This document shows, one piece after another, positions 15,685-62,740 of a stretch of 63,961 bases of DNA. Each line of letters starts with the position of its first letter. The first letter of the stretch is position 1. The notes beneath the pieces are model-generated. The model was not told the DNA's origin, did no database searches, and was given only the letters and a program-made list of their open reading frames with translations. The DNA is taken from contig CAZWJA010000005.1 in assembly GCA_964634445.1 (NCBI GenBank), positions 1 through 63,961 on the forward strand, written 5' to 3'. The DNA comes from an uncultured Candidatus Saccharibacteria bacterium (GTDB taxonomy: Bacteria; Patescibacteriota; Saccharimonadia; Saccharimonadales; AWTP1-31). Position numbers and translations under genes: made by a program.

Positions 15685-15710
15685 TTATTTCAATTATATC
15701 CGTATTTCTA

Positions 15711-16823: not shown

Positions 16824-16840
16824 ATTCTTTTTAAAAAGTC

Positions 16841-17470: not shown

Positions 17471-17482
17471 GTTTCCCCTAAC

Positions 17483-18088: not shown

Positions 18089-18120
18089 ACCCCTATTGTA
18101 TCAGTTCTAAAGTAATTTGT

Positions 18121-21121: not shown

Positions 21122-21151
21122 ATAAACTCCTGTATTACATTAATAACCATT

Positions 21152-21320: not shown

Positions 21321-21326
21321 AAGCAA

Positions 21327-21356
21327 ATTATAGCATAACCCCTGTAATGGCCCCAA
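21327..21356 (-). promoter_or_regulatory. Extended -10 promoter for the thrS leader
   Basis: Minus strand TTGGGG-18 nt-(TGc)TATAAT. Confidence 0.5.
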
Positions 21357-21358
21357 AA

Positions 21359-21390
21359 TAAAAAATCGAGTGGTCTCGCAAATCCACTCG
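21359..21390 (-). terminator. Intrinsic terminator
   Basis: Minus strand CGAGTGG-ATTTGCGAGA-CCACTCG followed by ATTTTTTATTTT. Confidence 0.5.
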
Positions 21391-21574
21391 ATCGATTGAA
21401 AACCTCTCCCAAAACTCAACCTAGTGCTAATTATCATAACAAGGATAGTACTATTAGGCTAGTAGAAAAGTAATGTCTTTTTTACATTTTCAACTGGGGA
21501 AAACAATTCATATTATTATACCCTGCCTGGTATATTATTTATGCTTAAGATATCTCATGAATTGTGCGACACAT

Positions 21575-21600
21575 AAAAAGAGATCCGGATATGGATCTCT
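21575..21600 (-). terminator. Intrinsic terminator downstream of tRNA-Val
   Basis: Minus strand AGAGATCC-ATATCC-GGATCTCT followed by TTTTAT. Confidence 0.6.
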
Positions 21601-21605
21601 ACTTA

Positions 21606-21682
21606 TGGTGGGCGATATAGGATTTGAACCTATCACCTCCACAACGTCAATGTGGCGCTCTAGCCAAATGAGCTAATCGCCC
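21606..21682 (-). tRNA. tRNA-Val (anticodon GAC), CCA encoded
   Basis: Minus strand GGGCGAT-TA-GCTC..GAGC-G-CCACA-TTGACGT-TGTGG-...GGTTCAAATCC...ATCGCCC-A-CCA. Confidence 0.9.
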
Positions 21683-22069
21683 GGCTGCAGTTCTAACCCG
21701 TTAATGTTACTGCATAACAGAGATAAAATCAACCTTACTGCCCGAATTAATGTTGTACTAACTATTGCTTGTATTGATTTTTTTACCTGTTTATGTTATC
21801 ATAAGCGTGTTAATTGAGGTGTTTTACGGTTTGAGTACCAAGAAACAAAGCACACTGGAGGAATTTAAGCTTTTCTATGAAGAGCTGGCTTCATCAGTGA
21901 ACATAAGTCGAATCCGACGTACCAGATTAGCTGATAAATAAATCAGCTACTTTGATACACCGAATTACCCCTTGGGCAATCCAAGTTTCTCTTCTTCAAC
22001 TCTTTTTTCCCACAGTTATTCCATGCTTATCCACTAGCATTATAAATAGCTTTATGACAATATGTAGAC

Positions 22070-22468
22070 ATGGTTTGTATATATTGCGGTGGTAAAACAC
22101 AAGTTTCTAACAGCCGTACGCAGAAACGGAGCAACTCAGTTTGGCGACGTCGTACCTGTACACAGTGCCTGGCTACCGTGTCGTCAAATGAAAAAATAGA
22201 TTACGAAACAGCTATTATTATTACCGGCGAGAAGTCGTCTCAGCCCTTCTCGCGCGACATATTATTCATTAGCGTTTATGACTCATGTCGGCATAGGAAA
22301 ACCGCCATAAAGGACTCAATTGGCCTCACAGACACAATTATTAAGCAGCTTATACCCCAAATTAAGCACGCTTCATTGTCTAAAGCTCAAATCAAAGAAA
22401 CTACCGGCAAAATACTTGCCCGCTTCGATAGCGCAGCCGGCGTCCAATACAAAGCTTACCACCCCTAA
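22070..22468 (+). CDS. nrdR: NrdR-like transcriptional repressor (zinc ribbon plus short ATP-cone)
   Basis: 132 aa, CIYCGGKTQVSNSR...WRRRTCTQC (CxxC...RRRxCxxC), then an ATP-cone-like PFSRDILFISVYDSC. Confidence 0.6.
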   Translation: MVCIYCGGKTQVSNSRTQKRSNSVWRRRTCTQCLATVSSNEKIDYETAIIITGEKSSQPFSRDILFISVYDSCRHRKTAIKDSIGLTDTIIKQLIPQIKHASLSKAQIKETTGKILARFDSAAGVQYKAYHP

Positions 22469-22498
22469 TTGAATAGATCGCTTAGTACTAATATAGGG

Positions 22499-24094
22499 TT
22501 AAATTACTGTCTTGTTGTCTTCTGTTTTTGTAGCTTTGTCGGTTACGTCGAATTTGTCTAGATATTTGCCGAACATCAACCTGGTTTGGGCATTAATAGC
22601 TGCCATTGAGTTGTAAAGTATTGTCGTTACTGGAAGCAGCACCCATTGCAGAACCATGAATACGGTCCGGTGTTTCTTGTATCGTTCTGGTTTTGGAGGC
22701 AGTGTCTTTAGGCTAAGATACAGCGTAGCCAATATACCGACCATAGCTATAGTCTGGATACGACCCGCGATAACCGGCAATTGATTAGATGCGTAGTCGT
22801 TATTATTGAATAGCGCCGGTATAAAACCAGCAAAAGCCAGTATCAACGGTGCTGTCGACCAGCTGATATGGCCTTCCAAAAGCCGGCTAAACTTCATAAT
22901 TAGATCGCCTTTAGGAACATTATTCTGAGAGAAGAAGCCCTTTTCGACTACATATGCTACGTCTGACGCGCCCCACGCCCAACGCCTAATCTGAATGAAT
23001 TGCATCTTAAGGGTCTTAATATAAGAAGATGAAAAGACAGCATCTTGATAAATTGGAACATATAATGGATATACCTCGTGTTTGCCGTCAAACCGGAAAT
23101 AAGTCCGCCAGAACTGGTGACCGTCTTCTACGATGGTACGAACACTCCAGTAATCTGTTTCGATCAGGGCGGCCATACCTTGGGCATGCGATGAGAAGTT
23201 GCGAATCATGTGCGGCCGCATAGACAGTACAATATTCCAGAATGAATTTCCGGTTGCTATCACCCTCATTAGTGCCGGTGCATCCCATATATTATTGGTA
23301 TAAATTGGAACCGGTTGGAAGGATGAATAAAGCGGATCCGGACAAATGCAGTACAGGTATGCCAGTGACGCTAAATATCCTTTATGCGGACGATTGTCCG
23401 AGTCTAGCGTCGTAACTATTACGTTGATCGGGTCAATATTTGCCTTTTCCAGATAACTTTCCAGCTGCCTGGCAGCAAAGGTAATGTTTCCACCTTTGCC
23501 TCTGACTTCTTTTTCAGTCAGCGGGTGCTTGGCGGTTAGAGTATGGGCGAACTGGCTGCCGTATTCTTTGGCTAAATCAAGTACAGCTGTTTCCGACTGG
23601 GCGCCGTCCCGGCCTTCGTATGCAAGCACTAGAATTACTTTTTTCATGTCGTAATCTGACGCTATGACAGATTGGATAGTTGGTTCCAGCACTTCCCTAG
23701 TCTCGTTATAGGCAGCAATAATAATCGCATGGTATACATCGTCAGGCTTAATGTCTTTAACCAGCTTCAGATTATCTCTATGCCAGCTTGGACTGTTATT
23801 AGTGTTTACTGTACCGGTCTGCAGGTCATCCAGCATTCCCCGCCAGTTTAATGCCGAGAATTCATCTATTTTCTTAATTCCCTGGAAATTCCTAAGCAAC
23901 AGTCCCATAGATTTAACGAACCAAAGAAGGATATAGATAATTACGATGAATATAACTACCCTAGGGATAAAGAAGCTTAAGATAAACGGAAGTAACAGGA
24001 TCGACCAAGTTAATAGCCCAGGCAGTATCTCAAAAAAGCGGTACCGGCGGGTTCTGTCTTCTTCATATGGGATCTCTATGTCGGCTTTGCGCAT
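22499..24094 (-). CDS. Processive family-2 glycosyltransferase (cellulose/chitin-synthase-like), polytopic membrane protein
   Basis: 531 aa, IIAAYNETREVLEPTIQS, TTLDSDNRP (DxD region), QIRRWAWG (QxxRW), with multiple TM helices at both ends. Confidence 0.75.
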   Translation of the reverse strand: MRKADIEIPYEEDRTRRYRFFEILPGLLTWSILLLPFILSFFIPRVVIFIVIIYILLWFVKSMGLLLRNFQGIKKIDEFSALNWRGMLDDLQTGTVNTNNSPSWHRDNLKLVKDIKPDDVYHAIIIAAYNETREVLEPTIQSVIASDYDMKKVILVLAYEGRDGAQSETAVLDLAKEYGSQFAHTLTAKHPLTEKEVRGKGGNITFAARQLESYLEKANIDPINVIVTTLDSDNRPHKGYLASLAYLYCICPDPLYSSFQPVPIYTNNIWDAPALMRVIATGNSFWNIVLSMRPHMIRNFSSHAQGMAALIETDYWSVRTIVEDGHQFWRTYFRFDGKHEVYPLYVPIYQDAVFSSSYIKTLKMQFIQIRRWAWGASDVAYVVEKGFFSQNNVPKGDLIMKFSRLLEGHISWSTAPLILAFAGFIPALFNNNDYASNQLPVIAGRIQTIAMVGILATLYLSLKTLPPKPERYKKHRTVFMVLQWVLLPVTTILYNSMAAINAQTRLMFGKYLDKFDVTDKATKTEDNKTVI

Positions 24095-24095
24095 G

Positions 24096-24449
24096 TTATC
24101 TCAGCACCAATAAGGCGTTGCTCACGATTATAGCCAGCAGCATTAATAACGCGCCTAGGCTCAAGACCATGACAGAATAGTTTCGGTGATGGTCGTATAC
24201 TTTAGCACTTAATACCATGTTTATTCCGAAAACAACTATCAGGAACACTACAAAAGCTAGAATATCGGTGATTTTACCAGCTTTGTAGGCACTAATTCCC
24301 AAATTAGATCTAAACTCTACAATATAGCTGCTTCCCCGTCCGCTTCCCAGTCGCAAGAACACCAAGATCGTTCCGATAACTGCGAAAAAGCTGTTGAGGC
24401 TGAGCAATAAAAGAACTAGTCGGTCCTGGAGATAATCTTTTGGAAACAT
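24096..24449 (-). CDS. Small integral membrane protein (3-4 TM)
   Basis: 117-aa hydrophobic ORF ending 1 nt before the GT2 start codon. Confidence 0.5.
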   Translation of the reverse strand: MFPKDYLQDRLVLLLLSLNSFFAVIGTILVFLRLGSGRGSSYIVEFRSNLGISAYKAGKITDILAFVVFLIVVFGINMVLSAKVYDHHRNYSVMVLSLGALLMLLAIIVSNALLVLR

Positions 24450-24469
24450 ATGGATTAATTTTACACTTT

Positions 24470-25384
24470 TTATCTACCGACAACTAGCTTATTGTAGGTA
24501 TCTTCAAGCACTTCGTATAAATTCCAGTACTGTGGCCATGATTTAGATACGCAAGCAGGATGAACAAATTCTATTTCTATTCCTGAGAACAGCCCGAAAA
24601 AGGCTAGAGCTTGAACAACTCTGTGGTCTCTACTATCTACTGGTTGTCCCTCTACTGCTTTATTTAGCATCAGAGGAAGTTCAGCTATTCTATTAGATTC
24701 ATGTCCTCGTAGAGATGGAAATCTCTGGTCTGCTTCTTCTATCGATATTTCACCGAATACATAGCCGTGAGGTACGTCTTCAGCTTGCTTTACTTCAAAC
24801 TCGGCGTCTTCGCCGTGAATAAGCCTTACAATATGTAGCGCCTGATTAAATAACGTTTCATCTAACCTTCTGACCCACCTTTCACCCGTTTGTTGCTTTT
24901 CATGCCACTCATCCCATACATCATAAGTTAACCCTAGTTTATATGGAGGATTTGAAATCCGCTCAGGATCTCCGATAAGCACTGCTGCTGTTGCCCATTG
25001 CGAAGTCCTATCTCTAAGGTGAAGCAATTCAGTTTGATTACTACATGCCAACACTTCTTCTTCGGTAGCAATATCTCTACTTATTAGCGTTCCATGCTTA
25101 ATGATCTGCTTTCCCCAACTCTGCTTCCAGTTGCTAAAACTGAAAATTCTTGCCAGTGTTCCAGATTCGCCAACGTCCAATGGTTTGTCCGTCGGCAGAT
25201 CTAGAATTATTTGTTCAAGAACCCGAATATCATCTGACGGATGAGCAATCGAATCAAGCTGTTCGAGCGCATAACCCGGATCACCATAGAATGTTTCTAA
25301 AACTGCCATTCTAATATCGTATGACTTATCATCATCAATAAAGGGGGTAATTAGTTTTTCGTGCTCAGTGATTGTGTTTATCAT
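24470..25384 (-). CDS. Short, degenerate EPSP-synthase/MurA-fold (enolpyruvyl transferase-like) protein
   Basis: 304 aa. GESGTLARIF (compare AroA GNAGTAMR), SLRGHESNRIAEL (compare LRVKESDRI) and RDHRVVQALAFFGL (compare DHRMAM). It is about 130 aa shorter than AroA/MurA, and the Lys and Asp of the KESDR motif are replaced. Confidence 0.45.
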   Translation of the reverse strand: MINTITEHEKLITPFIDDDKSYDIRMAVLETFYGDPGYALEQLDSIAHPSDDIRVLEQIILDLPTDKPLDVGESGTLARIFSFSNWKQSWGKQIIKHGTLISRDIATEEEVLACSNQTELLHLRDRTSQWATAAVLIGDPERISNPPYKLGLTYDVWDEWHEKQQTGERWVRRLDETLFNQALHIVRLIHGEDAEFEVKQAEDVPHGYVFGEISIEEADQRFPSLRGHESNRIAELPLMLNKAVEGQPVDSRDHRVVQALAFFGLFSGIEIEFVHPACVSKSWPQYWNLYEVLEDTYNKLVVGR

Positions 25385-25392
25385 ATTACCTC

Positions 25393-25467
25393 TGGTGCGG
25401 ACGGAGGGAGTCGAACCCTCGTCTCAACCTTGGGAAGGTTACATATTAGCCGTTATACGACGCCCGC
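25393..25467 (-). tRNA. tRNA-Gly (anticodon CCC), CCA encoded
   Basis: Minus strand GCGGGCG-TC-GTAT..ATAT-G-TAACC-TTCCCAA-GGTTG-AGAC-GAGGG-TTCGACT-CCCTC-CGTCCGC-A-CCA. Confidence 0.88.
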
Positions 25468-25468
25468 C

Positions 25469-25545
25469 TGGAGCCACCTTGGGGACTCGAACCCCAGGCC
25501 CCCACTTTACGAAAGTGATGCTCTAGCCAGCTGAGCTAAGGTGGC
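25469..25545 (-). tRNA. tRNA-Thr (anticodon CGT), discriminator U, CCA encoded
   Basis: Minus strand GCCACCT-TA-GCTC..GAGC-A-TCACT-TTCGTAA-AGTGG-...GGTTCGAGTCC...AGGTGGC-T-CCA. Only 1 nt separates it from tRNA-Gly. Confidence 0.88.
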
Positions 25546-25654
25546 ATTCAATATTGAATTATATCAAAATAAAGCTTAGAACGGTTGCATTTTACCCCTG
25601 ATATTGTTAGACTAACCTCCGTTGCTTTATTATTTAAACCAACAAAACAAACGC

Positions 25655-25732
25655 GGGCCCGTGGTGTAGCTGGCCTAACACGCCTCCCTGTCACGGAGGA
25701 GATCGCCGGTTCGAATCCGGTCGGGCCCGCCA
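25655..25732 (+). tRNA. tRNA-Asp (anticodon GTC), CCA encoded
   Basis: GGGCCCG-TG-GTGT..ACAC-G-CCTCC-CTGTCAC-GGAGG-AGATC-GCCGG-TTCGAAT-CCGGT-CGGGCCC-G-CCA. Confidence 0.9.
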
Positions 25733-25779
25733 AGCTTAAGCAATACCCAATATACCTGGAATATGGTATTTTTTGTTTT

Positions 25780-26157
25780 ATGGCTGAAGATGAATTTACC
25801 CCGAATTTAGCAGAACGAGAAGATTCACGCTTTTGGTATGTAGACAGTAAGATGAATGTTACTAAACCTGGCGATACCGTTATTATTAGCGAAGTATGTG
25901 GAGATAGTTTTGGTGAATATAGTCGAATTAAACACTTAGGAATAGCTGCAACTTTTTTATTAAATTTTAATGAGGATGAACAAAGTAGCATCGAGTTAGC
26001 AAAAGTATTCTGTGACCCAGGTGAAATAGATGCATTATCACCTGAAGAAGTAGATTCATTTTCAAGAATGCCTTACTTTTCAGCAAATTTTGAAGGAATT
26101 GGTACCATTACATTTAGCGGCATGGAATGTTTTTGGGGATCTGTTCAAGATCAATAG
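25780..26157 (+). CDS. Hypothetical acidic protein
   Basis: The supplied ORF 25585..26157 overlaps tRNA-Asp. The first ATG downstream of the tRNA (25780, MAEDEFTPN...) gives 125 aa. No motif recognised. Confidence 0.4.
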   Translation: MAEDEFTPNLAEREDSRFWYVDSKMNVTKPGDTVIISEVCGDSFGEYSRIKHLGIAATFLLNFNEDEQSSIELAKVFCDPGEIDALSPEEVDSFSRMPYFSANFEGIGTITFSGMECFWGSVQDQ

Positions 26158-26369
26158 TTAAATAGTTCGGAAATCAGACTCGATACCCCGCCAGTAAGAA
26201 ATACTGGAAAGATTACTTGAATATATTAAATATAACTTTATCTGAACTTTATAGATAAGCTATATAGCCCTCAAAGTATTTCGTAAACTAAATATTTACA
26301 GATAGATTATCAATAAATTCATTTAGTCATTTCCTTGACTTTTTTTCTATTTTGTGCTATCATTTATCC

Positions 26370-26729
26370 ATGAAAACAACTCCGGAATCCAGCGTAGCAT
26401 CAGAATTAGAATCGACTAGAGAAAAATATAATATTGGTATAGGTTCTATCGTAGACCGCATAGACTTAGGCGAACGTGCTTTTGTTATAAGCGAAGCTTT
26501 CGGAGACACAGACATAGTAAATGCAAATAAGATTGAAGTTAACGAAGACGGCAAATATGTAGTTAGCATGTTTGGTGGTAGTGGCTCCCTTTCTGAAATG
26601 AAATTAGTAGACGTCGATAAGTTAACTGTAGATGAAATTGTTGAAGGCGTTAGTCGCGGTCTGCCTGAATACCTAAGACCGCAAGAAGCTGAAATGCTCG
26701 AATCCTTTAGGCAATCCTTAGAGCAATAG
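26370..26729 (+). CDS. Hypothetical acidic protein
   Basis: ORF 26352..26729. The likely start is the ATG of MKTTPESS at 26370. No motif recognised. Confidence 0.4.
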   Translation: MKTTPESSVASELESTREKYNIGIGSIVDRIDLGERAFVISEAFGDTDIVNANKIEVNEDGKYVVSMFGGSGSLSEMKLVDVDKLTVDEIVEGVSRGLPEYLRPQEAEMLESFRQSLEQ

Positions 26730-26781
26730 ATACTTAGCTCTTAAACTAGTTTGCATAACTTTATTACTCAGCTATAACAGA

Positions 26782-27855
26782 TCACAGCTTTATATATACG
26801 GTCGCTTTTTTCTTATCTTTTAGGTCGTTAATAAAACCGTTGATGTCTTTAAAATTAATGACTATATGAGCTGCTCTAACCTTTTCGCCCTGCACTTCAA
26901 TGTTTTTAACAATTTCTAAACAGTAGGTATTTACGCAGTATCCGGAATTAATAACGTCGGATACTTGACCAGGTTTTAGCTTAAATATGGCATCAGCCGT
27001 CCTAGGTGTAATATCCCTATTAGTCTTATCTATTACGCTTTCATATTCCCCGCCATTGTCTTTTGTTGCTTGGTCTTCAGAATATTTTTTTGCTACGTCT
27101 GCAAAAGAAACTCCGCTGTCTAATTCTGCTTTAGCAGCTTTTGCTTTAGCCATTGCTTCCGGATCAAGTTCTGGCATTAGCTTTTGTTCCATTAGCTGAG
27201 TTTTAACGTTGCGTTTAAAATCTTGAGTTGTCCAACCCCAATACTGTTTAAGTACGTCTTCGAATACTTTATCACTTCCCCCTAGTCTGTTCTGAGTTTT
27301 GACAATCTTAATTTCGTCATTCACCTCTACATCGCTGACTGAAACTTTCTTATCTTTGGCCATCATTTTGATATAGGCGTCGTTAATTACTTTATTCAGT
27401 GCCCGTTTTTTGTAATCCTGAAGCTGCTGCTTGCCAGATTCGCTGTTAAAGTCTAGTTTCTGTTCGTTTTGGTAATAATGAATGTAATGTTTAAGTTCAA
27501 ACAGATAATTCTCATAAGCTACAAAGTTATTGCCGGCTTTTGCAATTGGAAAAGGAATAACCTGTGTGACTCCGTACAAGAAAGCCGAATGTGATTTTAG
27601 CTTATATAGTGAAAAGGTTGTAAAGCCGAAGAATCCGACCAAAGCGGCAATAAACAACGAAGTCGTGATCAACACGATCTTGTGCTTGGAGTGCTGTAGG
27701 GGGTAGATATACTTTCGAGCACTGGATAAGACTTCTTCTCTGTGTTCGGCAACTGTCTCATTAGTTATCTTTGGTAGGTGCTCTCTGACTTGTTCTTCGA
27801 GTTTAGCAGCTTTCCTAGCCTTAGGTGATAATAGTTTTCTTATTCTTTTCTTCAT
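26782..27855 (-). CDS. Membrane-anchored parvulin-type peptidyl-prolyl isomerase (PrsA/SurA-like)
   Basis: 357 aa with an N-terminal TM. SurA-N-like helical region, then FADVAKKYSEDQATKDNGGEY...KPGQVSDVI (rotamase-type motif). Confidence 0.65.
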   Translation of the reverse strand: MKKRIRKLLSPKARKAAKLEEQVREHLPKITNETVAEHREEVLSSARKYIYPLQHSKHKIVLITTSLFIAALVGFFGFTTFSLYKLKSHSAFLYGVTQVIPFPIAKAGNNFVAYENYLFELKHYIHYYQNEQKLDFNSESGKQQLQDYKKRALNKVINDAYIKMMAKDKKVSVSDVEVNDEIKIVKTQNRLGGSDKVFEDVLKQYWGWTTQDFKRNVKTQLMEQKLMPELDPEAMAKAKAAKAELDSGVSFADVAKKYSEDQATKDNGGEYESVIDKTNRDITPRTADAIFKLKPGQVSDVINSGYCVNTYCLEIVKNIEVQGEKVRAAHIVINFKDINGFINDLKDKKKATVYIKL

Positions 27856-28424
27856 TCTTCTATTTCCCTTTCGGATTGAGTTTCCGTTACATCAACACCC
27901 TCTTGCCTCAATATCTTTAGTAGCTGCTTCTGTATTTTAGCCGGATGGTGAATATCATGGATAATCAAGTCGCCGACGTAAGTTTGCATCATAATAGTAC
28001 CATATCCTAAAGCGGTTTGTTGCAGTCCGGCTATCTGGTAGTTGACCATTTGGATCTGGCTTAAGCCAAGGTCTACAACAGTACGGTTAAATAGTCCTTT
28101 CTGAGTAATCTGAATCAATCTTTGGTCGGTTACTATGAATACGCTGTAGTACCAGCCAATCCAAGACGGAAATAATATCAAGCAGCCAAACAATATACTA
28201 AACAGCAGGCTTAAGAAGAAAAACGACATGCTTGGCAGCTCGTTTGGTCGGACGTAAGTCAGAATCAGCGTATACAATGGTCCTATAAGCCAAGCGGCCA
28301 TACCAAAGATAAGACCCCGACGCATCACAATTGGATGCTTGCGAAATACAAACAAAACTTCTTCGTCTTCGAATTGGTCCTCAAAGTATTTTTGACGGCC
28401 TGTTTGTTTTTTAGCCATATGCAC
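27852..28424 (-). CDS. Membrane protein with bacterial PH (bPH_2/YdbS-like) domain
   Basis: 190 aa. Two TM helices, then VTDQRLIQITQKGLFNRTVVDLGLSQIQMVNY. 4-nt overlap with the downstream PPIase gene. Confidence 0.55.
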   Translation of the reverse strand: MHMAKKQTGRQKYFEDQFEDEEVLFVFRKHPIVMRRGLIFGMAAWLIGPLYTLILTYVRPNELPSMSFFFLSLLFSILFGCLILFPSWIGWYYSVFIVTDQRLIQITQKGLFNRTVVDLGLSQIQMVNYQIAGLQQTALGYGTIMMQTYVGDLIIHDIHHPAKIQKQLLKILRQEGVDVTETQSEREIEE

Positions 28425-28484
28425 TATTATAGACTATAACCAGATAATTCCTATCTGTTGTATACTGTTATGCGGAGTTTATGC

Positions 28485-28559
28485 GTCCCCATAGTTCAAT
28501 GGATAGAATACTTCCGTCCTAAGGAATAGATAGCGGTTCGAATCCGTTTGGGGATACCA
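28485..28559 (+). tRNA. tRNA-Arg (anticodon CCT), CCA encoded
   Basis: GTCCCCA-TA-GTTC..GAAT-A-CTTCC-GTCCTAA-GGAAT-...AGCGG-TTCGAAT-CCGTT-TGGGGAT-A-CCA. It has a G1-U72 pair and one mismatch in the anticodon stem. Confidence 0.75.
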
Positions 28560-42830: not shown

Positions 42831-45119
42831 CTATAGAATTGGCGGCAGGACCGTATTGAAATAATTTCCGTTCAAATCATTTGGATCAGGATCGCCAATT
42901 GGCAAGCTTAAGTAAATTTCAGGGTTGAAGTTGAATACTTCGCCTGCACATACTGGCGCAGATCCATTAAGCGCTCCATTGCAAGCTCTGGCACCGTCAG
43001 AAGGATCCTCGCCGTTAGTAGCATTTCGGATAGATCCAAACGTCCTTAAGAGCTGGACGTGACGGGCTACAAACGAGCCGTTTACAACTAACTGTATCTT
43101 ACATGCATCAAATAAGTTCGCTTCATTACCGGCATAGACATTAGTGCCATTTGTACATGTATATATAACACCTCCGTTAGGCTGGGCAGCACTTGGCTGC
43201 GCGACATATACTCCGTCAAGATTTGGTACAGATTGGTCAATTTTAATATTCCTTGCAACGATTACCAAGCTAGGAATATCAGTACGACTGTTTCTTCTAT
43301 TACCCGGAGTGTCAGGTTCAAAGTTAATCGGCCCAGTAATTGTCAGAGTGCCGTTTACGAAAATCCTAACATGCCTGGCTTTCCTGACCATTCCACCAGT
43401 TATAGTCAAGTCGCCATTATGAATATAGTCGCCGGAAGCCGCATTTAATGACATAGGGTTGCTAGGTACAGGATCGCTCACGTCTGCTGAATCTGCAAAA
43501 TAGTCGTGAATACATTTCGAATTAGTAAATTGACCTAGTGGAGCTGTCTGATTAGAGAATGTCAGGCCGTTGCCGAATCTTGGTAAAGGTAAGGCTGCAC
43601 CTCTAGTCTTTAAACTTGCTGAGTTAAACTTGCTGATTTGTCCGAGCGCAAATGCCGCAAACTGTACTCCGCTACCGAATCCAGATGCATCGCTTGTATA
43701 CGTATCAATATTCCCAAGCTGGTTACAAGGAGAGGCTCCCGTGCGAAATCCACCTCCAGCTGAAATATCAGAACCGAAAACAGAGACGTATGGTTTATTC
43801 GCTACCGTAACGCATCTATTTGCAGTTGCATTTCCAGAACCGGTAACTATATTTCCCGATCCGTCCAAAGTTCCGCTTTGTGGTGTTGCCGTAATTACAA
43901 GACAAACAGTATCTCCTGCACTGAGTGGAGGAAAACTGAGTGAATCATTATAGTTCTCATTAGTATTTAATCTACCGCTGTAAGGAAACGAGTTTGTAGT
44001 GTTAGATCCTGACTTCGTAACGGTAATAGTCCTTGTAACATTAGGCGTAATACCGCCCCCGGGATTTATCCCTGTATACCCTCCACCGGTAGGATATGTA
44101 ATTCCAAGTGTAGATGCAGCATTTACACCAGTGGGGTTATCGTCACCCCCTGTGAGTGCTAAATTATTAATTCCTACACCCACCGTATATCTGTTACATG
44201 CCGAATCCCTTACCCATTGATGAGACTTATATGCATTAGAAGATTGTCCAGGACCAGCAATTCCATAAACATCCAATGTAGTACCTGGAGCAACAACTCC
44301 ATTTAGGTTTATGAATCCTGATTGTGCACTTCCAGTTCCACCAATAGGTGTGGGTCCAGGACCATATACATCTACTCTTGCCCCACTAGTACTTACGTTA
44401 ATACCATCACAACCTACATTATTAACAGTAAGCGTAGGTGCGTTTGGCGTAACATTAACCCAAAATGAAGCTGTTAGATTTACTGTGCTGCATGGTCCAA
44501 AATCTAATAGATTGACTGGATCTCTAGTACCACCACTTACGCATCCAAAACTGCCTGGAAACTGGTTAATCCTTTTGGCTGCAATGGTAAAAGTGTATGC
44601 ACCGCTCGTAGTAAAACCGCCCAAAGGTGCATAGTTAAAATCAACAAATCCACCTAAAGGACTAGCTCCTCTATAAGTACCGGGAACATTAGAATCTCCA
44701 GGCCCAGCACCTGAGGTATAATTTAAGCTCATGCCAGGAGGTAATCCGTTTACTCCAGGAGGAATAGTAGAAAATTGCAATGCCGTTTGCGAAACGGCAC
44801 TATTTGTAAAGCATACTGTTCCTGACCAGTTGAACCTTAATGGAACGCTAGTTGTACCATATGGCACAGTCTGAGCTGCTGGCACATCAACATTCGATGC
44901 TCCTGAATTAGAAAACCAGTAATTAAACTTTGGTGACTGACTACCGGCGTCACAGTTCTGGGCATCCCAATGAATTGAAAATGGTATGAAATTACCTACA
45001 TCCGGTGTTAAATTTAATAATGCATTTGCTTTAGGTGTGGCTATAATCTGAATAACAACGAAGGAGAATACGGTTAGTAGTGTTGATAATAAGATCCGTT
45101 TAAATTTTGTGTATTTCAT
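42831..45119 (-). CDS. Large secreted Gly/Asn/Thr/Ser-rich beta-rich protein (candidate pilus-associated adhesin)
   Basis: 762 aa with an N-terminal signal-like TM (LLSTLLTVFSFVVIQIIATPKANA). No pilin motif and no LPXTG. Many paired Cys. Encoded at the 5' end of the pilus gene block. Confidence 0.5.
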   Translation of the reverse strand: MKYTKFKRILLSTLLTVFSFVVIQIIATPKANALLNLTPDVGNFIPFSIHWDAQNCDAGSQSPKFNYWFSNSGASNVDVPAAQTVPYGTTSVPLRFNWSGTVCFTNSAVSQTALQFSTIPPGVNGLPPGMSLNYTSGAGPGDSNVPGTYRGASPLGGFVDFNYAPLGGFTTSGAYTFTIAAKRINQFPGSFGCVSGGTRDPVNLLDFGPCSTVNLTASFWVNVTPNAPTLTVNNVGCDGINVSTSGARVDVYGPGPTPIGGTGSAQSGFINLNGVVAPGTTLDVYGIAGPGQSSNAYKSHQWVRDSACNRYTVGVGINNLALTGGDDNPTGVNAASTLGITYPTGGGYTGINPGGGITPNVTRTITVTKSGSNTTNSFPYSGRLNTNENYNDSLSFPPLSAGDTVCLVITATPQSGTLDGSGNIVTGSGNATANRCVTVANKPYVSVFGSDISAGGGFRTGASPCNQLGNIDTYTSDASGFGSGVQFAAFALGQISKFNSASLKTRGAALPLPRFGNGLTFSNQTAPLGQFTNSKCIHDYFADSADVSDPVPSNPMSLNAASGDYIHNGDLTITGGMVRKARHVRIFVNGTLTITGPINFEPDTPGNRRNSRTDIPSLVIVARNIKIDQSVPNLDGVYVAQPSAAQPNGGVIYTCTNGTNVYAGNEANLFDACKIQLVVNGSFVARHVQLLRTFGSIRNATNGEDPSDGARACNGALNGSAPVCAGEVFNFNPEIYLSLPIGDPDPNDLNGNYFNTVLPPIL

Positions 45120-45130
45120 TTATATATCCA

Positions 45131-45667
45131 TTAGAAACTAATATTATTTTTTACTTTTTCAAGCTGCTCAACCCTGAATTTTAAATACTCAAGTGTTTTT
45201 ATTAATTCAGGGCTACTTTGAATAGGCTTCGCATATTTAGTATCTTTATTTGCTACCTTAACTAACTTGTCATAGTATTTACGCAAATTCTCTGCGTCAG
45301 ATGCTCGGTCAAAATAGAAAGTCATTACATATAAGCATGTAGGATCACTATCCACGTTCTTCATTGATTTCATTTTTAAGACTGTTTTTAATAAATTTGA
45401 GTTAGCGCTTGGATTCATAACATTAGCTGCTTCTGTGTAAATTGGGCTGTCGTCTTTGCCGTTACATTGCTTAGTGATATCTTTTTCATTTTTCTGCTGA
45501 ATAAATAGCACTCCACCAATTCCTAGAATACATATAATTACAAGAAGAATGAGTAGTATTTTTTTATGATTTCTAAGTTTTTTAAAAGATTTTGGCAACT
45601 TGAAATTTAAACTTTTTCGTTTTTTTACAGGATATACCGTGACTTTAGAGTCATTACCTTCGTCCAT
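45131..45667 (-). CDS. Hypothetical membrane-anchored protein
   Basis: 178 aa. Basic N-terminus, one TM (ILLILLVIICILGIGGVLFI), then a helical ectodomain. Confidence 0.5.
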   Translation of the reverse strand: MDEGNDSKVTVYPVKKRKSLNFKLPKSFKKLRNHKKILLILLVIICILGIGGVLFIQQKNEKDITKQCNGKDDSPIYTEAANVMNPSANSNLLKTVLKMKSMKNVDSDPTCLYVMTFYFDRASDAENLRKYYDKLVKVANKDTKYAKPIQSSPELIKTLEYLKFRVEQLEKVKNNISF

Positions 45668-45684
45668 TTGTCTTGATTATACTT

Positions 45685-45903
45685 ATGCTTGGACTTAATA
45701 ACAAGTCTGATTCATATATAAAATCATTTTTACTCCACCTCTGTTATACTATTACCCATGGGTTCACTTTCAATCGGTATTCACAAGACGCAACCATACC
45801 ATTCGATATAACGTTTTCGATGCCTCCACTAGATAAAAGAACTAGGGGCTACACGCCACAACAGATCAAAGAACTACAAGAAACGGTTGGTGGGCAGTGG
45901 TAA
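45685..45903 (+). CDS. Small conserved ORF embedded in repeat R1 (function unknown)
   Basis: The last 43 codons (45775-45903) align without gaps to 51516-51644. 14 codons differ, 12 of them synonymously, which indicates this frame is translated. The start is uncertain (ATG 45685 or ATG 45820). Confidence 0.45.
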   Translation: MLGLNNKSDSYIKSFLLHLCYTITHGFTFNRYSQDATIPFDITFSMPPLDKRTRGYTPQQIKELQETVGGQW

Positions 45904-46048
45904 AATGATAATATTCACCTGTCAAGTAAATTCGGTTCATCTTTTTTCTTTTTGTCAAACAGTGCAACGTCACGGAAATTTTTTTTCCAGAAATCAGGTC
46001 TAGTATTTCTACCCCACCATGCTCACCACTATATTTACACACCTAAAC
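45741..46048. repeat. Direct repeat R1 (~308 bp), left boundary of cassette 1
   Basis: Aligns with 51482-51776. It covers the mini-ORF, then TCGTTCAT-type and T-run motifs, then CTACCCCACCAYRCTCACCACTATATTTRCAC. It ends in CCTAAAC, which supplies the stop codon of the adjacent minus-strand gene. Confidence 0.85.
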
Positions 46049-51376: not shown

Positions 51377-51481
51377 GTTTTGTGACTTTGTAGATCGCCT
51401 GCTCTTAGTTAATACCCGTCATCATAACAACATTTTGTATCTTTTATCGCCCATACTCGTTCATTACACACACTAGGTTAT

Positions 51482-51776
51482 CTGTTACAATAACACCTAT
51501 GAGTTCGCTTCAAATAGGTATTCACAAGACGCAACCATACCATTTGAAATAACCTTCTCGATGCCACCATTAGATAAAAGAACTAGGGGTTATACCCCCC
51601 AACAGATTAAAGAATTACAAGAAGCAGTTGGTGGGCAGTGGTAAGTAATTAACCTACCGTAAGATAATTCGAATTTTCGTTCATCTTATTGTTTGGTATC
51701 AACAAGAGCAATGCTACAGAAATTTTTTTCTGAAATACTACCCCACCACACTCACCACTATATTTGCACCCTAAAC
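51482..51776. repeat. Direct repeat R2 (~295 bp), boundary between cassettes 1 and 2
   Basis: A copy of R1. The mini-ORF copy (51516-51644) is preceded by an in-frame TAG at 51474 and has no canonical upstream start other than the internal ATG at 51561. It ends by providing the TAG stop of the HEPN gene. Confidence 0.85.
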
Positions 51777-52481
51777 GATTAACCAGTCTGGCCTATTGTC
51801 ATGATCGTATCCAAATATGTTGGAGTGCCAAACTGGCGAGAGATTGAATGATAAATCACCCTGATCAAGTCCGAGAGTACGAATCAGCATATCTTGTATA
51901 AGCAATTCAAACACATGTGCAAGGTGTATCCTATTCTGCACGTCAGTATTTTGCTGATTTTTGTTAAACTCATAGTCTTCAAAAAATTGTCTAAGTCGTA
52001 CTGGGTCATTCTGATTTTTATAAGCTCCTAACACGCCCGTGATTGTACCTGTATGCATTACATCGTTACGCAGAATTCTAATAGCATGAGCCGTATCCGA
52101 TGGCATCTTCCATTTGTATATCTCCTCAAAAACCACTCGTAGCTTTTTATGAAATCCAGCCTCTGTGTCGAGGCTTATGCTGGAACTGGTGCTTGCGATA
52201 TTAAAGTAAAGTAACTCAAGAGCTTGAGCATGAAGGGATAATTTTATTTCAACCACGCTTTTTGTGGATATTCCGTAATAGATTGAGAAAACATGCGTCC
52301 TTTGCGGAAATGCAGATTGCCACTCTGATGTCTGTATCTTGCTCATGATCTTTTCAATGCAACTGTCGAAATGACCAGTCACATTTTTGCCACCAACAAT
52401 ATTTTCGACTAGGTATCTTACAAGAGCTTTATCTTGAGCTAAAGTGCTATCGCTCCACAAAATAGAATGATTGTTACTCAT
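51771..52481 (-). CDS. HEPN-domain protein (putative RNase), third gene of a three-gene operon
   Basis: 236 aa. AHAIRILRNDVMHTG contains R138-N-D-V-M-H143, i.e. the RNxxxH / Rx4-6H HEPN signature. The rest is predicted helical. Confidence 0.55.
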   Translation of the reverse strand: MSNNHSILWSDSTLAQDKALVRYLVENIVGGKNVTGHFDSCIEKIMSKIQTSEWQSAFPQRTHVFSIYYGISTKSVVEIKLSLHAQALELLYFNIASTSSSISLDTEAGFHKKLRVVFEEIYKWKMPSDTAHAIRILRNDVMHTGTITGVLGAYKNQNDPVRLRQFFEDYEFNKNQQNTDVQNRIHLAHVFELLIQDMLIRTLGLDQGDLSFNLSPVWHSNIFGYDHDNRPDWLIV

Positions 52482-52504
52482 AAAGTCTCAGTGTAGGTTT
52501 AAGA

Positions 52505-55060
52505 TTACGCAACAACGTTACGATACTCGGTATAGCCCTTTGCGACTAACTTATTCGCTAAGTCTAAAGCTAACTGTTTTATGGTGCTGTCATCTGAACT
52601 ATAAACAGTCTTGATAATAGCAGTCGTATTTTTACTCCAACTTGATACTGACCAGCGATCTCTCGTTCCGTCGACCATAGTAGATAATGCCTTGATGACT
52701 TCCTTGGAGTATTGATCGGCTATTGTTTCCATATACTCCAGTACAGCAAAGTCTAAATTAATGTTTCCAGCTTTTGAAGCAGCGTAGGTAAGCTGGTCCA
52801 AAGACCATTTCGGATCAAACTTGCCTGAAGCAAACCAAGTACCAAACTCCTCAAGTGCTTCAAGCTTTGTGGAATCGCTTTTCGTAAGTTCAACGATAGC
52901 TTTCCAAAGCTCGATAAGTTTCTTTATTTGAGCATCTTCAAATTCTGTCTCTTTGCTCTTATATAATCTAAAACCAATGAAATTAGCCAGCTCTTTTATG
53001 TACTTTGTGTCAGCGGTTTTCAGTAATGTATTCATGATCGATTCATCAGACAAATCTAAATCGGTATGCCAGTAATGTAATGCGAGGTGCTGTACGAAAT
53101 TCTTTAGCCCGTCGTGGCGTGCTTTACCGTCTTCGGTAGGCGGTGCTGCAAGCCGTGCTATCTGTCTCATAAAAACATCTCCTAGAACTTGCAATGCGTC
53201 TTCATGGACACGATTAAACATCACATAAGCGTCAAAGGCAGCATTGCCTAAACTATCATCAGAAAATATGGCATCTGTGTTCTTGGTAGCCCAATCTTTA
53301 TCCGTGCCGTATAAAAGCTCAAAACGCCAACCGTAGACTGAACGCATAGCTGGAACTGAATCATTGTCAGGGTTCAGGTGCCAATCAAGCTCGTCAAAAA
53401 TCAACTTATACTTATCCTTATCGATCTTATTCCTATTCATCCATGCCAATAAGTAAGCCAACGCATGCAGTGCTTTACCTCGATTTGAATTAATAGACAA
53501 ATCCGCTGGGTCAAAACTTGAAGTATCTTTGCCTGTTGGGTCTTCTGATCGGCACAGTAGAAGTATTAGCTTGGCGATAGCGTCAAAACTTTTAATAGTA
53601 ATTCGCTCCGTCTTATCTTCTTTTCTGCTTACCAGCTTTTCAATTAATCTGATCGCACTAGACTTAGACCACTCATAGTAGTTATGTCTTTCTTGCTCCT
53701 CATCTTCACTGCCAGCTTTATAGACCTCCGTCAGGTCTTCAAGTATCTTGACGACATTATCTTCGCTTAAATTGTCGGAAACCTCCTCGATAGCACGTAT
53801 AGTTTCATCAAGATATTCATTCTTGGTAGCTGCAACATCTTTAATTAGCAATGCAAAGCGATTAGGATCAACTTTGACCAGAAGTCCCAATTCCTTTGAA
53901 ATAGAATCACGCTCAAACGACCAACCCGATTCATCCTTATAGGTCTTTAGCTTTTCTATTAAGTCAGTGTCTGACAGGTCTTTTAGAACTTCCGTCGGAT
54001 TTTCAGTAACAAATCCAGATGTTACTTCACTGCCGCCACTTTTTTCATTTGCTAATATACGCTTAAGCTGTTCATCTTTACTTAGTGAATCGTAAAACGG
54101 CTTAAACGTTTTATTACTTTTATATTCACGCAGACCAAACTCTACTACACGTTTGAATATAGAGTATTTGTTGATAGCTAGTTCTTTGAGTTTCGCTAAT
54201 TTCTCCTCACCGCTAATCGACGAATCTTCCATCAGGGCTATCACACTATCACGCAATGCTGTGGTTAAAACATCTTCGGGGTCGTGGCTGTGATCATTGT
54301 CTTCGGCTATTTTTGGTCGCCAGATATATGATAGGTCATCTTTCTTTTCGCTAGGGTCTTCTTTTTCCTCATCGCCTTCCTCAAGCTTAAAGTGAGTGTA
54401 CTCGTAGCTAATAGCTTTTTGAAGCAACTCTGCGTACATATCTATCGTGCTCAATGGCGAAGCTTTTGCTAATGAGGGGGTTACCTTATCTACAATACTT
54501 TTATAATCATAGTCTCTGTATTTTGTGTCAGCCTTCATCATCACGTAGTCTGATTTAAGCTTTTCTTCTTTTTCGGGGTCGGGAGATACATCAAGCATTT
54601 CTTTTGCAAGTTCCAACGCAGAATCATATTGATTATTATCAGCTAACTTACAAATCAATTCTGAGACCGTTGTATGCAGCATGAGAAAACGAGATGTGTT
54701 GATGTATTTCTTTAGCTGATCAGTATATCTAGCTGCCTTACTTGGGCTTACTTTGAGCAATATGTTTGCCACATCATCCATTACACGTTCGTTATCGGTA
54801 TCTGGAAAAGCCTTGATAATTTTTAGCACCTCATTCTGTGCTTTGTCAGCAACTTTTAACAGATAGCCGCTTTCAGGCCACACAGGAAACTGTATGTAGC
54901 CATCCTTGCGTATGGCTGGTATCGGGTTCTTAAAGAAGCCCTTTTCTTTCAGTGGCAACAGCCAAGCAGGGTTATCTATTTTTTGGAAGAAATAGTTATA
55001 AGCGACTGGGGTCTTATTAATATTCTCCAGAGTCTTATTTATTAGGTCGTCAGAAATCAT
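52505..55060 (-). CDS. Large (851 aa) all-alpha repeat protein of unknown function
   Basis: No Walker, nuclease, protease or TM motif that I can see. It is a long series of amphipathic helices with acidic linkers (HEAT/ARM/TPR-like by composition). Its start overlaps the upstream gene stop (ATGA). Confidence 0.5.
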   Translation of the reverse strand: MISDDLINKTLENINKTPVAYNYFFQKIDNPAWLLPLKEKGFFKNPIPAIRKDGYIQFPVWPESGYLLKVADKAQNEVLKIIKAFPDTDNERVMDDVANILLKVSPSKAARYTDQLKKYINTSRFLMLHTTVSELICKLADNNQYDSALELAKEMLDVSPDPEKEEKLKSDYVMMKADTKYRDYDYKSIVDKVTPSLAKASPLSTIDMYAELLQKAISYEYTHFKLEEGDEEKEDPSEKKDDLSYIWRPKIAEDNDHSHDPEDVLTTALRDSVIALMEDSSISGEEKLAKLKELAINKYSIFKRVVEFGLREYKSNKTFKPFYDSLSKDEQLKRILANEKSGGSEVTSGFVTENPTEVLKDLSDTDLIEKLKTYKDESGWSFERDSISKELGLLVKVDPNRFALLIKDVAATKNEYLDETIRAIEEVSDNLSEDNVVKILEDLTEVYKAGSEDEEQERHNYYEWSKSSAIRLIEKLVSRKEDKTERITIKSFDAIAKLILLLCRSEDPTGKDTSSFDPADLSINSNRGKALHALAYLLAWMNRNKIDKDKYKLIFDELDWHLNPDNDSVPAMRSVYGWRFELLYGTDKDWATKNTDAIFSDDSLGNAAFDAYVMFNRVHEDALQVLGDVFMRQIARLAAPPTEDGKARHDGLKNFVQHLALHYWHTDLDLSDESIMNTLLKTADTKYIKELANFIGFRLYKSKETEFEDAQIKKLIELWKAIVELTKSDSTKLEALEEFGTWFASGKFDPKWSLDQLTYAASKAGNINLDFAVLEYMETIADQYSKEVIKALSTMVDGTRDRWSVSSWSKNTTAIIKTVYSSDDSTIKQLALDLANKLVAKGYTEYRNVVA

Positions 55061-55764
55061 ACGTTATCTCCCTCGGCGATAATACTATCCAACACATCAA
55101 GTGTGTCTATAGGTACAGAACGTTCTGGGTATTTTATGTCTAGAATGAAATCTTCTAAAGTAATAATCTTAGCCTTCAACTCCACTACTGTGGTTGTCTT
55201 CTGATGATGTGCCACGCCCTTGAAGAAATCATCTAACTCACCCCATAGCTTTAGCCGTTCTTTTGTAATAGCCTCTGGGATAGGTTGCCCAGACCCGTCA
55301 AGCGTTGTAAGCACGGCTTTGTGCTGTGCACTGCGTGGTCTATGTTCCGCAGAAAAAGTGGTAAAGAATTCCCCCATTGCTTTGAGCACCTTTTGGAAAG
55401 GGTTATCTACTGTACCAGACCAGTCTGAAGTGCTAATCGATTTCGTACCTTGTATTGCCGTCGTCCATTTTTCAGTAAGTGATATAACGGCACTCTTTAG
55501 CCCATTACCCTCTATCTTTACAGGGACTTCAACCATATAGTCATGTGCCTTTTCCATAAGTTCCCGCATAGAGTGGGCAACCTGTGCAAGCACATCGGGG
55601 TTCCCCGACAACTCAAGAGTAATCCATGCACCTCTTAACATATTTGCAAGGTCTTCTGAATTTTTAGAAAATAACTCAAGCAATCTAAGGGTTCGTGAGT
55701 CATAACTGACAGCACTTTGGGCACTTCGTTCATCCATCTCATTACCTTCAGCATCCATGCCCAT
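55057..55764 (-). CDS. Hypothetical helical protein, first gene of the three-gene operon
   Basis: 235 aa. VAHSMRELMEKAH could be a degenerate R-x6-H motif. Otherwise unrecognised. Confidence 0.45.
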   Translation of the reverse strand: MGMDAEGNEMDERSAQSAVSYDSRTLRLLELFSKNSEDLANMLRGAWITLELSGNPDVLAQVAHSMRELMEKAHDYMVEVPVKIEGNGLKSAVISLTEKWTTAIQGTKSISTSDWSGTVDNPFQKVLKAMGEFFTTFSAEHRPRSAQHKAVLTTLDGSGQPIPEAITKERLKLWGELDDFFKGVAHHQKTTTVVELKAKIITLEDFILDIKYPERSVPIDTLDVLDSIIAEGDNV

Positions 55765-55880
55765 ATTATGGCATAAAAACAGATAGGAAACAGATGAAGA
55801 CGTTATCCCCTCAACTTCCGTCCTAAAACACGTCCAACACGCTCCAAATGCGTCACAGAGGGTATACTATTACAGAGGTG

Positions 55881-55936
55881 TCGTTCATCTTTTGATGTCT
55901 GAATTTACTGAACAACCTTAGACAAATTTTTTTTGG
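55881..55936. repeat. Inter-cassette element copy C
   Basis: TCGTTCATC...(38 nt)...ACAAATTTTTTTTGG, with the same end motifs and spacing as copies at 45933, 51677 and 62496. It continues with AGCCTTAACGTCATTTT, which resembles copy D. Confidence 0.5.
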
Positions 55937-55983
55937 AACTTTTTAGCCTTAACGTCATTTTTTGCTTATGCAGCTCAGCCACC

Positions 55984-62495: not shown

Positions 62496-62551
62496 TCGTT
62501 CATTAAAATTGCTAGGAATAATAGGGCGAACTGCTCACAGATTTTTTTTGG
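62496..62551. repeat. Inter-cassette element copy D
   Basis: TCGTTCATT...(38 nt)...CACAGATTTTTTTTGG, followed by ACCTTTAATGTCATTTTAGC, which resembles copy C. Confidence 0.45.
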
Positions 62552-62740
62552 GTATATTTACCTTTAATGTCATTTTAGCTGTTAATTATAGGCAATATTA
62601 CCGTGATTATTTCGTCAGTATCAACTTGCTGTTTTTTTCTTTTTTCTCGTGTCATATTTTCATACTAACAGGAGTGGTGATCTTACACAAAATTGAAGAA
62701 AACCCCACAAAAGCAAGGGAGTTTTTGCATAACTGTCAGA

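Follow-up and report, generated by a model that had tools for sequence, protein, structure and literature searches.

Dsr1 and Avs7 use a common TPR sensor whose trigger, known for EcDsr1 and SeAvs7, is the phage major capsid protein (PMC12803255, a 2026 preprint). This sensor is found paired with many swapped N-terminal effectors, among them NADase, nuclease, kinase and HEPN-like domains, split proteins included (PMC12803255). DSR2 is described as SIR2, MID and an alpha-solenoid CTD that binds the phage tail tube protein (PMC11850899, PMC10981675). We compared these and other systems with three adjacent genes of an uncultured Candidatus Saccharibacteria bacterium, lying on a stretch of 63,961 nt that was analysed as a whole (the window). 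On balance, we favour reading them as two defence-type modules: a split Dsr1/Avs7-family pair, A and B, plus a separate HEPN-like RNase gene, C. The features are:

55057..55764, minus strand: gene A (ORF 55764->55057), 235 aa, interpreted as the sensor's N-terminal effector, encoded separately
52505..55060, minus strand: gene B (ORF 55060->52505), 851 aa, alpha-solenoid/TPR-like, homologue of the non-SIR2 sensor of Dsr1
51771..52481, minus strand: gene C (ORF 52481->51771), 236 aa, candidate HEPN-like RNase of a small all-helical family
55561..55575, minus strand: H64-S-M-R67-E68 motif of A, candidate active site together with E204 at 55153-55155
52523..53998, minus strand: residues 355-846 of B, aligned to 737-1217 of the 1227-position PADLOC Dsr1 model PDLC04166
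52053..52070, minus strand: R138-N-D-V-M-H143 motif of C, with the invariant R138 and H143
55765..55983, minus strand: intergenic region upstream of A, presumed promoter and 5' UTR of the A-B(-C) transcript

The three minus-strand ORFs, the 4-nt ATGA overlap of A and B (positions 55057-55060), the 23-nt gap between B and C (52482-52504) and the AIRILRNDVMHTG motif are all as an earlier reading of the DNA (the sequence-only reading) had described them. As many full-length homologues exist for each (30 clusters for A, 47 for B and 33 for C), the ORFs are real genes and not chance occurrences. No terminator-like site was found on the minus strand between A, B and C, the first one lying downstream of C (51603-51582), and the two modules are probably transcribed together. 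Conservation of the first ~130 nt before A is 72-74% in loci L006/L015 and L012. The earlier picture of a repeat-bounded cassette in an accessory array holds in part: the flanking repeats are real (a ~290-nt element at 51481-51769 with a second copy at 45740-46040, and a 40-nt repeat at 55922-55961 with a second copy at 62537-62576), but the region does not look integron-like, judged by its transport and redox neighbours (metal-efflux, MFS, oxidoreductase and cytochrome bd genes).

Sequence comparison shows B to be a homologue of all of Dsr1 that follows the SIR2 domain, its sensor part. The Dsr1 model PDLC04166 matches window B at E=2.5e-30, aligned only from model position 737; for the remote full-length homologues P0044-P0047 the alignment starts near model position 300 and reaches the model's end (E 2e-41 to 3.3e-56), and eight B relatives gave E-values from 3.8e-23 to 3.3e-56. 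Thus the supposition of an 851-aa helical sensor or scaffold is borne out by homology to the Dsr1/Avs7 sensor (PMC12803255), whereas the statement that the trio could not be mapped to a named system is not upheld, since B maps to Dsr1-type sensors. The earlier remark that B has no NTPase motif was correct: it contains neither a Walker A motif nor a significant Pfam domain, and no NTPase family of Pfam or NCBIfam was found in it. In this B resembles Dsr1, which likewise has no STAND NTPase, and differs from Avs7 and the STAND NTPase receptors with their central NOD domain and P-loop. Neither single-sequence nor profile searches with B hit a PDB entry, its identity to characterised Dsr1 being too low for this. 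With DSR2 it would share the principle of a helical-repeat C-terminal sensor through which a phage structural protein unleashes an N-terminal effector (PMC11850899, PMC10981675); however, B has no sequence match to the DSR2 models, and both sensor family and effector differ. The relatives of B are spread patchily over many phyla of bacteria and archaea, the pattern that horizontal transfer would produce; Dsr1 and Avs7 show a similarly transferred distribution, a variable effector position and split forms (PMC12803255). Decay or frameshifts, typical of dispensable genes, affect the B-family genes of L049 and L052, and three actinomycete relatives (L039, L045, L048) carry N-terminal extensions of ~200 aa.

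Among the relatives of A, the only recurrent family is pP_pnuc_1 (PF18165), described by Pfam as "predicted pPIWI-associating nuclease". Window A itself stays below the gathering cut-off of 26.3 bits (19.2 bits, covering only model positions 5-41 of 133); the model is matched by 21 of 22 close relatives (best E 1.3e-6) and by 16 of 23 distant ones (best E 8.9e-9), and for several homologues precomputed PF18165 matches are listed. Across 23 sequences, taken from an archaeon and several bacterial phyla, R67 and E204 never vary, and conservation of H64 and E68 is 90% or higher. The AF2 model of A consists entirely of helices (pLDDT 77) and has no significant structural neighbour in the PDB. Going by the name of its Pfam family alone, A is possibly a nuclease; to our knowledge, an enzymatic function has never been shown for pP_pnuc_1, so A may be an adaptor rather than an effector. 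The degenerate R-x6-H (RELMEKAH) that had been proposed for A is not a conserved motif, as most relatives have Pro or Ser in place of H74.

A is the sole recurrent neighbour of B. It lies upstream of B with a 4-nt overlap in 17 distinct loci (from Saccharibacteria, Actinomycetota, Chloroflexota, Bdellovibrio, Anaeromyxobacteraceae and a Methanothrix archaeon) and forms the N-terminal part of a fused A-B protein in at least nine others (P0024, P0027, P0042; L025-L043). Since A is thus the constant partner of B, overlapping or fused, we regard A+B as one split effector-sensor protein, built like Dsr1 and Avs7 from an N-terminal effector and a large helical-repeat sensor. There are also differences from Dsr1: no SIR2 match was found in A, B or C, a pP_pnuc_1 domain stands at the effector position in place of the SIR2 NADase, and effector and sensor are separate genes in the window, whereas Dsr1 is one polypeptide. 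The Streptomyces "HEPN-like RNase" protein, compared here by its depiction in Fig. 2a of PMC12803255, also combines a Dsr1/Avs7-type sensor with a nuclease-type effector instead of a NADase, but A shows no HEPN motif, and hhalign found no relation between A and C.

From these homologies the following mechanism can be proposed for A+B. A and B would be made by translational coupling through the ATGA overlap, with A, as a separate polypeptide, standing where Dsr1 has its N-terminal SIR2 NADase. As a large helical-repeat sensor, B would bind a conserved phage structural protein, by analogy with its homologues E. coli Dsr1 and Salmonella Avs7. Phage sensing would then switch on A, and the cell would be killed or arrested, possibly through nuclease action. 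The trigger of B is extrapolated from proteobacterial homologues with about 20-25% identity or less.

C contains AHAIRILRNDVMHTG, including R138, N139 and H143. Its family is small and previously undescribed: a search of 1.84 billion proteins gave only 44 representative clusters, including one false positive. An alignment of 34 C sequences, with identities down to 21%, has just two columns without variation, R138 and H143; conservation at N139 is 90% or more. The AF2 model (pLDDT 91.4, pTM 0.90) has nine helices, and the RNxxxH motif is predicted to form the C-terminal end of helix 128-144. The sub-threshold Pfam matches of the family are mostly HEPN, from eight HEPN-clan families: HEPN_Swt1 (four members), HEPN_Apea (three), pEK499_p136 and Ribonuc_2-5A (two each), Cthe2314 and DUF4145 (one each), RiboL-PSP (the best, E 0.0011) and LA2681 (E 0.0014); no HEPN-family match reached the gathering score. 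Foldseek found no significant match of the C model in the PDB (best E 0.44, TM<0.25) and none among the predicted viral structures of BFVD (best E 0.22), where a MAE_28990-like HEPN protein appeared at E 1.4 only; profile searches against the PDB gave nothing relevant and, for C, were empty. As the structure and profile searches brought no significant match, the HEPN assignment of C draws on the motif and the sub-threshold matches, on which the RNxxxH signature noted earlier is upheld. C is most likely a HEPN-type, metal-independent RNase, because its sole invariant residues form R-N-x3-H. It resembles stand-alone HEPN proteins (ApeA, AbiD/AbiF-type, Swt1-like, RiboL-PSP and LA2681-like) in its small size and predicted all-helical fold, in the invariant R-N-x3-H that closes a long helix and in forming a single-gene unit in variable genome regions, and its weak Pfam matches are to just these families, but differs from them by its tiny family and by having neither a gathering-score match nor a significant structural match.

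The sequence-only reading had taken the three genes for one novel unit in which the giant protein holds the HEPN RNase in check; this is borne out only in part. A defence-type function is supported by the strong match of B to the Dsr1 sensor model and by relatives that lie near defence genes. The idea of a single unit applies to A and B, which co-occur universally and are fused in some lineages, but not to C, which is not a conserved partner: it is found in none of the 41 representative-genome loci with a B relative. A three-component system, in which B senses phage and restrains or activates C while A serves as adaptor or second effector, seems unlikely to us, although the genes are co-directional, A and B overlap by 4 nt, 23 nt separate B from C and terminator-like sites are absent in between. 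In fact, the survey of gene neighbourhoods suggested for the trio did recover the A-B-C order: apart from the window, C directly follows B only in two contig types (L010/L011 and L012), at 72-79% B identity and with a B-C spacing in L010 and L012 similar to that of the window, and a few further contigs, judged by their equal lengths in the homologue lists of A, B and C, appear to carry A-B-C. In addition, other B clades have third genes of their own: L001 and L018 carry PLDc_2, and L032, L033, L037 and L040 a 597-aa gene. Against a three-component system, C is absent at the same position in L006/L015, despite 91% B identity, and the ~290-nt repeat element directly follows B there; the presence/absence difference between the window and L006 is clean. 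Moreover, C homologues (58-75% identity, compared with 76-77% in A-B contexts) occur without A or B in four unrelated contexts, and fusions join A to B but never C to B. Restraint of C by B finds no comparative support, and the protein controlled by B is most likely A. As the linkage is tight, terminator-free and kept across 72-79% B identity, C may nevertheless be functionally tied to A-B in this sub-lineage. Its recruitment here as a second, RNA-targeting effector under B, giving a three-part system of sensor, split pP_pnuc_1 effector and HEPN-like RNase, is a doubtful proposition in our view.

Judging from its distribution, C moves independently among Saccharibacteria genomes and is probably an autonomous module, its close relatives being restricted to Saccharibacteria-type contigs. 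HEPN proteins are commonly toxins of toxin-antitoxin systems, e.g. HEPN-MNT. C could accordingly be imagined as such a toxin, with a neighbouring small gene or RNA, e.g. in the downstream repeat, as its antitoxin, and would then not be an anti-phage gene in the strict sense; C is a mobile gene, found at the end of operons that are unrelated, and directly downstream of it in the window there is a conserved repeat containing a 27-aa ORF. We nevertheless think this improbable: no gene family is common to the seven contexts of C, no MNT-type nucleotidyltransferase domain or MNT antitoxin gene was found in A, B or the flanking genes, and the ~290-nt repeat does not travel with C, as it also follows a Crp-like gene and, in L006, a B gene that has no C beside it. 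Under the reading with two modules, C is most likely a stand-alone abortive-infection or toxin gene, which in this lineage sits between B and the repeated small-ORF element. That the genes are non-immune, with B a housekeeping TPR scaffold, A and C unrelated helical proteins and the R and H of C used for binding, is very improbable: no enzymatic domain is significant in A, B or C, the models of A and C have no structural neighbours and metabolic and transport genes surround the locus, but B strongly matches a defence-sensor model, its family is patchy over bacterial phyla and archaea and includes the decayed or frameshifted genes of L049 and L052, presence varies between close relatives, and relatives adjoin type II R-M genes, a PLD nuclease gene, an Abi_alpha gene, DNA methylases and serine recombinases.

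Taken together, A-B would be a widely distributed case of a phage-capsid-sensing domain that is reused with many effectors, the effector here being pP_pnuc_1, and its split and fused forms offer a convenient natural system for studying how sensors control a separately supplied effector. C defines a small candidate RNase family with a strict R-N-x3-H and no structural relative found. Current ideas are refined by these findings, and none is overturned. If C were indeed a second effector of B, the locus would represent a modular "one sensor, two effectors" immunity in an ultra-small episymbiont, with C in addition a helical fold without a solved relative. Saccharibacteria, members of the candidate phyla radiation, have genomes of about 1 Mb and few known immune systems; each defence module found in them therefore helps to explain how they survive phages.

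The three genes of the locus are read from the minus strand as follows:

55764->55057, minus strand, gene A, ORF of 235 aa
55060->52505, minus strand, gene B, ORF of 851 aa
52481->51771, minus strand, gene C, ORF of 236 aa

A shares 4 nt with B, and C follows B after a gap of 23 nt; the ORF listing reproduced exactly the positions of the sequence-only reading, which had proposed a three-gene HEPN operon with a defence function, B restraining C. As dozens of full-length homologue clusters were found for each of A, B and C, we consider all three to be real genes. The only terminator-like hairpin of the minus strand in this region lies downstream of C (51603-51582) and none was found between the genes, so that a single transcript is plausible. 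A search against Rfam revealed no RNA family within or adjoining the locus.

We discovered that B, which the sequence-only reading could assign to no named system along with its two neighbours, maps to the sensor of defence-associated sirtuin 1 (Dsr1) and of the STAND protein Avs7: residues 355-846 of B align with positions 737-1217 (of 1227) of the PADLOC Dsr1 model PDLC04166 with E=2.5e-30. Since four remote full-length B homologues (P0044-P0047; 21-26% identity to B in a joint alignment) match PDLC04166 from about position 300 to the model end (E 2e-41 to 3.3e-56), B, judged by these alignments, corresponds to the entire portion of Dsr1 after the SIR2 domain. Both a SIR2 domain (Pfam scan) and a Walker A motif (motif search) are absent from B, scans with Pfam and NCBIfam gave no significant match, and single-sequence and profile searches of PDB sequences reached no solved relative. 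According to a January 2026 preprint (PMC12803255), Dsr1 and Avs7 have a bilobed TPR sensor in common, phage major capsid protein is the trigger of EcDsr1 and SeAvs7, and some proteins with this sensor are split across adjacent genes. By its sequence, B fits as a member of this sensor family.

The position of A in the A-B pair is that of SIR2 in Dsr1 and of the effector in Avs7. Scanning 41 representative-genome loci and additional metagenomic loci with local HMMs, we found a separate upstream A that overlaps the start of B at 17 distinct loci (Saccharibacteria and other Patescibacteria, Actinomycetota, Chloroflexota, Anaeromyxobacteraceae, Bdellovibrio and a Methanothrix archaeon), and A fused to the N-terminus of B at at least nine loci, mostly in Patescibacteria. 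With a broader local profile, two additional long forms (loci L028 and L027) were clearly recognised as A-like, others only weakly so, and a Pfam scan of the N-terminal extensions of the more distant B relatives (L027-L051) gave no match. When all neighbours were compared with one another, A was the sole gene family recurring beside B across lineages. Because of this recurrence and the pattern of upstream overlap and fusion, gene order and sequence indicate that A and B are one functional unit, an obligate pairing with fusion variants.

The Pfam family pP_pnuc_1 ('predicted pPIWI-associating nuclease') matches A itself weakly, with 19.2 bits (cut-off 26.3 bits) over residues 36-72 only. Among A relatives the family is matched consistently, by 21 of 22 close ones (best E 1.3e-6) and by 16 of the 23 more distant (best E 8.9e-9), no other Pfam family recurs among them, and in three B homologues of 1029-1040 aa the domain is found at the N-terminus. 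A+B is a split variant, with a putative pP_pnuc_1 effector, of a very recently described kind of system. That A is a nuclease is Pfam's prediction; literature searches on pP_pnuc_1, and on pPIWI and HEPN together, returned nothing, and no description of the domain is given in the 2013 PIWI-RE paper. The polar residues R67 and E204 are invariant in A across all these lineages, G45, H64, E68 and F181 are conserved to at least 90%, and many of the relatives share an [AS]-H-H motif (H186, H187). The degenerate R-x6-H (RELMEKAH) suspected in A is not a conserved motif, as H74 is usually replaced by Pro, which rules out A as a HEPN protein on this ground. An AF2 model of A is all-helical at moderate confidence (pLDDT 77); Foldseek found nothing significant for it in the PDB, searches of PDB sequences with A, both as single sequence and as profile, gave spurious matches only, and an NCBIfam scan of A was empty.

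The expectation of a conserved trio held for A and B, which recur together, but not for C, which is distributed independently. The order A-B-C is found again on contigs L010/L011 and L012, with B identities of 72-79%, and might reflect a functional link of the three genes in this lineage. We regard such a link as unlikely, however: C is encoded within 6 kb at none of the 41 representative-genome loci, and in a relative with a 91%-identical B (L006/L015) the stop codon of B is directly followed by the repeat element that comes after the stop codon of C in the window, so that C and the 23-nt spacer constitute a clean presence/absence difference. Moreover, C homologues with 58-75% identity occur without A or B in four other contexts, which have no neighbour in common:

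L007, after an unrelated 314-aa gene and near SocA_Panacea and a T5orf172-ResIII-Eco57I giant
L054, after a 163-aa gene
L056, after a HAD hydrolase gene
L057, near a resolvase gene

No antitoxin-like neighbour is conserved across the seven contexts of C that were compared. Other B clades also have differing lineage-specific third genes, namely PLDc_2 at L001 and L018 or, at four Patescibacteria loci, a 597-aa gene. Most simply, these gene arrangements are explained by C being a self-contained mobile gene that happens to lie downstream of A-B.

The small PLDc_2 (phospholipase-D-type nuclease) genes beside A-B are located at 6960-7442 in L001 and 9117-9560 in L018, both from Saccharibacteria; the one in L001 lies directly upstream of A and has a type II R-M system on its other side. 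The conserved gene of about 590-597 aa (L032, L033, L037, L040; e.g. L033 8744-10537) has no Pfam match, overlaps or closely follows the fused A-B, and may be a clade-specific third component of the fused form in Patescibacteria. About 4 kb downstream of A-B in L006 (14587-17561), a 173-aa gene overlaps an 818-aa gene. Neither has a recorded Pfam match, rescanning the 818-aa protein against Pfam gave nothing, and neither protein was detected with the profiles of A, B and C; with its A-B-like layout the pair could be another effector-sensor pair.

Two repeats flank the locus. An element of about 290 nt occurs twice in the window (51481-51769 and 45740-46040; 72-85% identity) and once in L006 (10555-10724). 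Its plus strand contains a 27-aa ORF, MPPLDKRTRGYTPQQIKELQE[AT]VGGQW (51561-51644 and 45820-45903), whose changes are mostly synonymous (the window copies differ by 8 synonymous changes and 1 non-synonymous change). The far end, CCACCAYRCTCACCACTATATTTRCAC, each time adjoins the stop codon of a convergent gene, namely C, a Crp-like gene and, in L006, B. The element could be either a gene for a small conserved protein or a mobile intergenic sequence. A 40-nt direct repeat with 80% identity, ACAAATTTTTTTTGGAAC...TTAACGTCATTTT, is found in the intergenic region upstream of A (55922-55961) and about 6.6 kb away at 62537-62576; its role could be that of a promoter or regulatory site common to both places.

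Searching 1.84 billion representative proteins with a profile of C yielded 44 clusters, nearly all of them stand-alone proteins of 205-245 aa. One is a false positive, P0147 (1158 aa), a beta-rich repeat protein that matches only ...IRIVANTLVHTG.... C contains AHAIRILRNDVMHTG with R138, N139 and H143, and loss of the arginine and histidine among homologues would have spoken against the HEPN assignment; in an alignment of 34 sequences, down to 21% identity, R138 and H143 are the only invariant columns, with N139 conserved to at least 90%. The AF2 model is of high confidence (pLDDT 91.4, pTM 0.90), has nine helices and places the R-N-x3-H motif at the end of helix 128-144. Pfam scans of all 34 members at a permissive threshold gave recurrent weak matches that almost all belong to the HEPN clan (HEPN_Swt1, HEPN_Apea, pEK499_p136, Ribonuc_2-5A, RiboL-PSP, LA2681, Cthe2314, DUF4145; best E 0.0011, none at gathering score). 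An NCBIfam scan gave nothing, Foldseek found no significant match in the PDB or BFVD (predicted viral structures), and single-sequence and profile searches of PDB sequences returned nothing relevant (designed helical repeats, PPR designs and similar). Cas1, at the top of the Foldseek list (E 0.44, TM<0.25), was treated as noise, HEC-01B from PADLOC (E 0.0079 over 34 residues) as chance, and homology of A and C is ruled out (hhalign probability 0.3). C represents a new small family that is probably HEPN-like; the case for it founding a divergent HEPN-like family is good but not conclusive.

The window starts inside a minus-strand 16S rRNA gene (1-59) and contains an RNase P RNA gene (14150-14489) and six tRNA genes (within 15609-28559), and is therefore chromosomal, not a piece of a plasmid or phage. 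Several 1-kb stretches with clearly lower G+C (0.32-0.35 versus a window average of ~0.41; 11001-13000, 26001-27000 and 45001-46000) may be recently acquired or intergenic-rich segments. The supposed accessory cassette array does not look integron-like by its gene content, the neighbours being cation-efflux, MFS, molybdopterin-oxidoreductase, histidine-phosphatase and cytochrome bd genes. All close homologues of A, B and C come from Saccharibacteria/Patescibacteria assemblies, which makes a Saccharibacterium the very probable source of the window. The defence-type reading is supported by relatives: the A-B-C locus varies between them, A-B adjoins type II R-M genes, Abi_alpha-like genes, DNA methylases and serine recombinases in other genomes, and frameshifts or decay have affected several of the distant B genes (L049, L052), all of which is usual for defence genes.

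Taken together, what had been observed in the sequence stands, and its interpretation is supported in part only. We propose that B would bind a conserved phage structural protein and thereby activate A, made as a separate chain through coupled translation; activated A might then damage nucleic acids of the cell or the phage, or stop growth otherwise. C would act independently of them, as a HEPN-type RNase serving either as a toxin or in abortive infection. New are the split variant with a putative pP_pnuc_1 effector (A+B) and the small C family.
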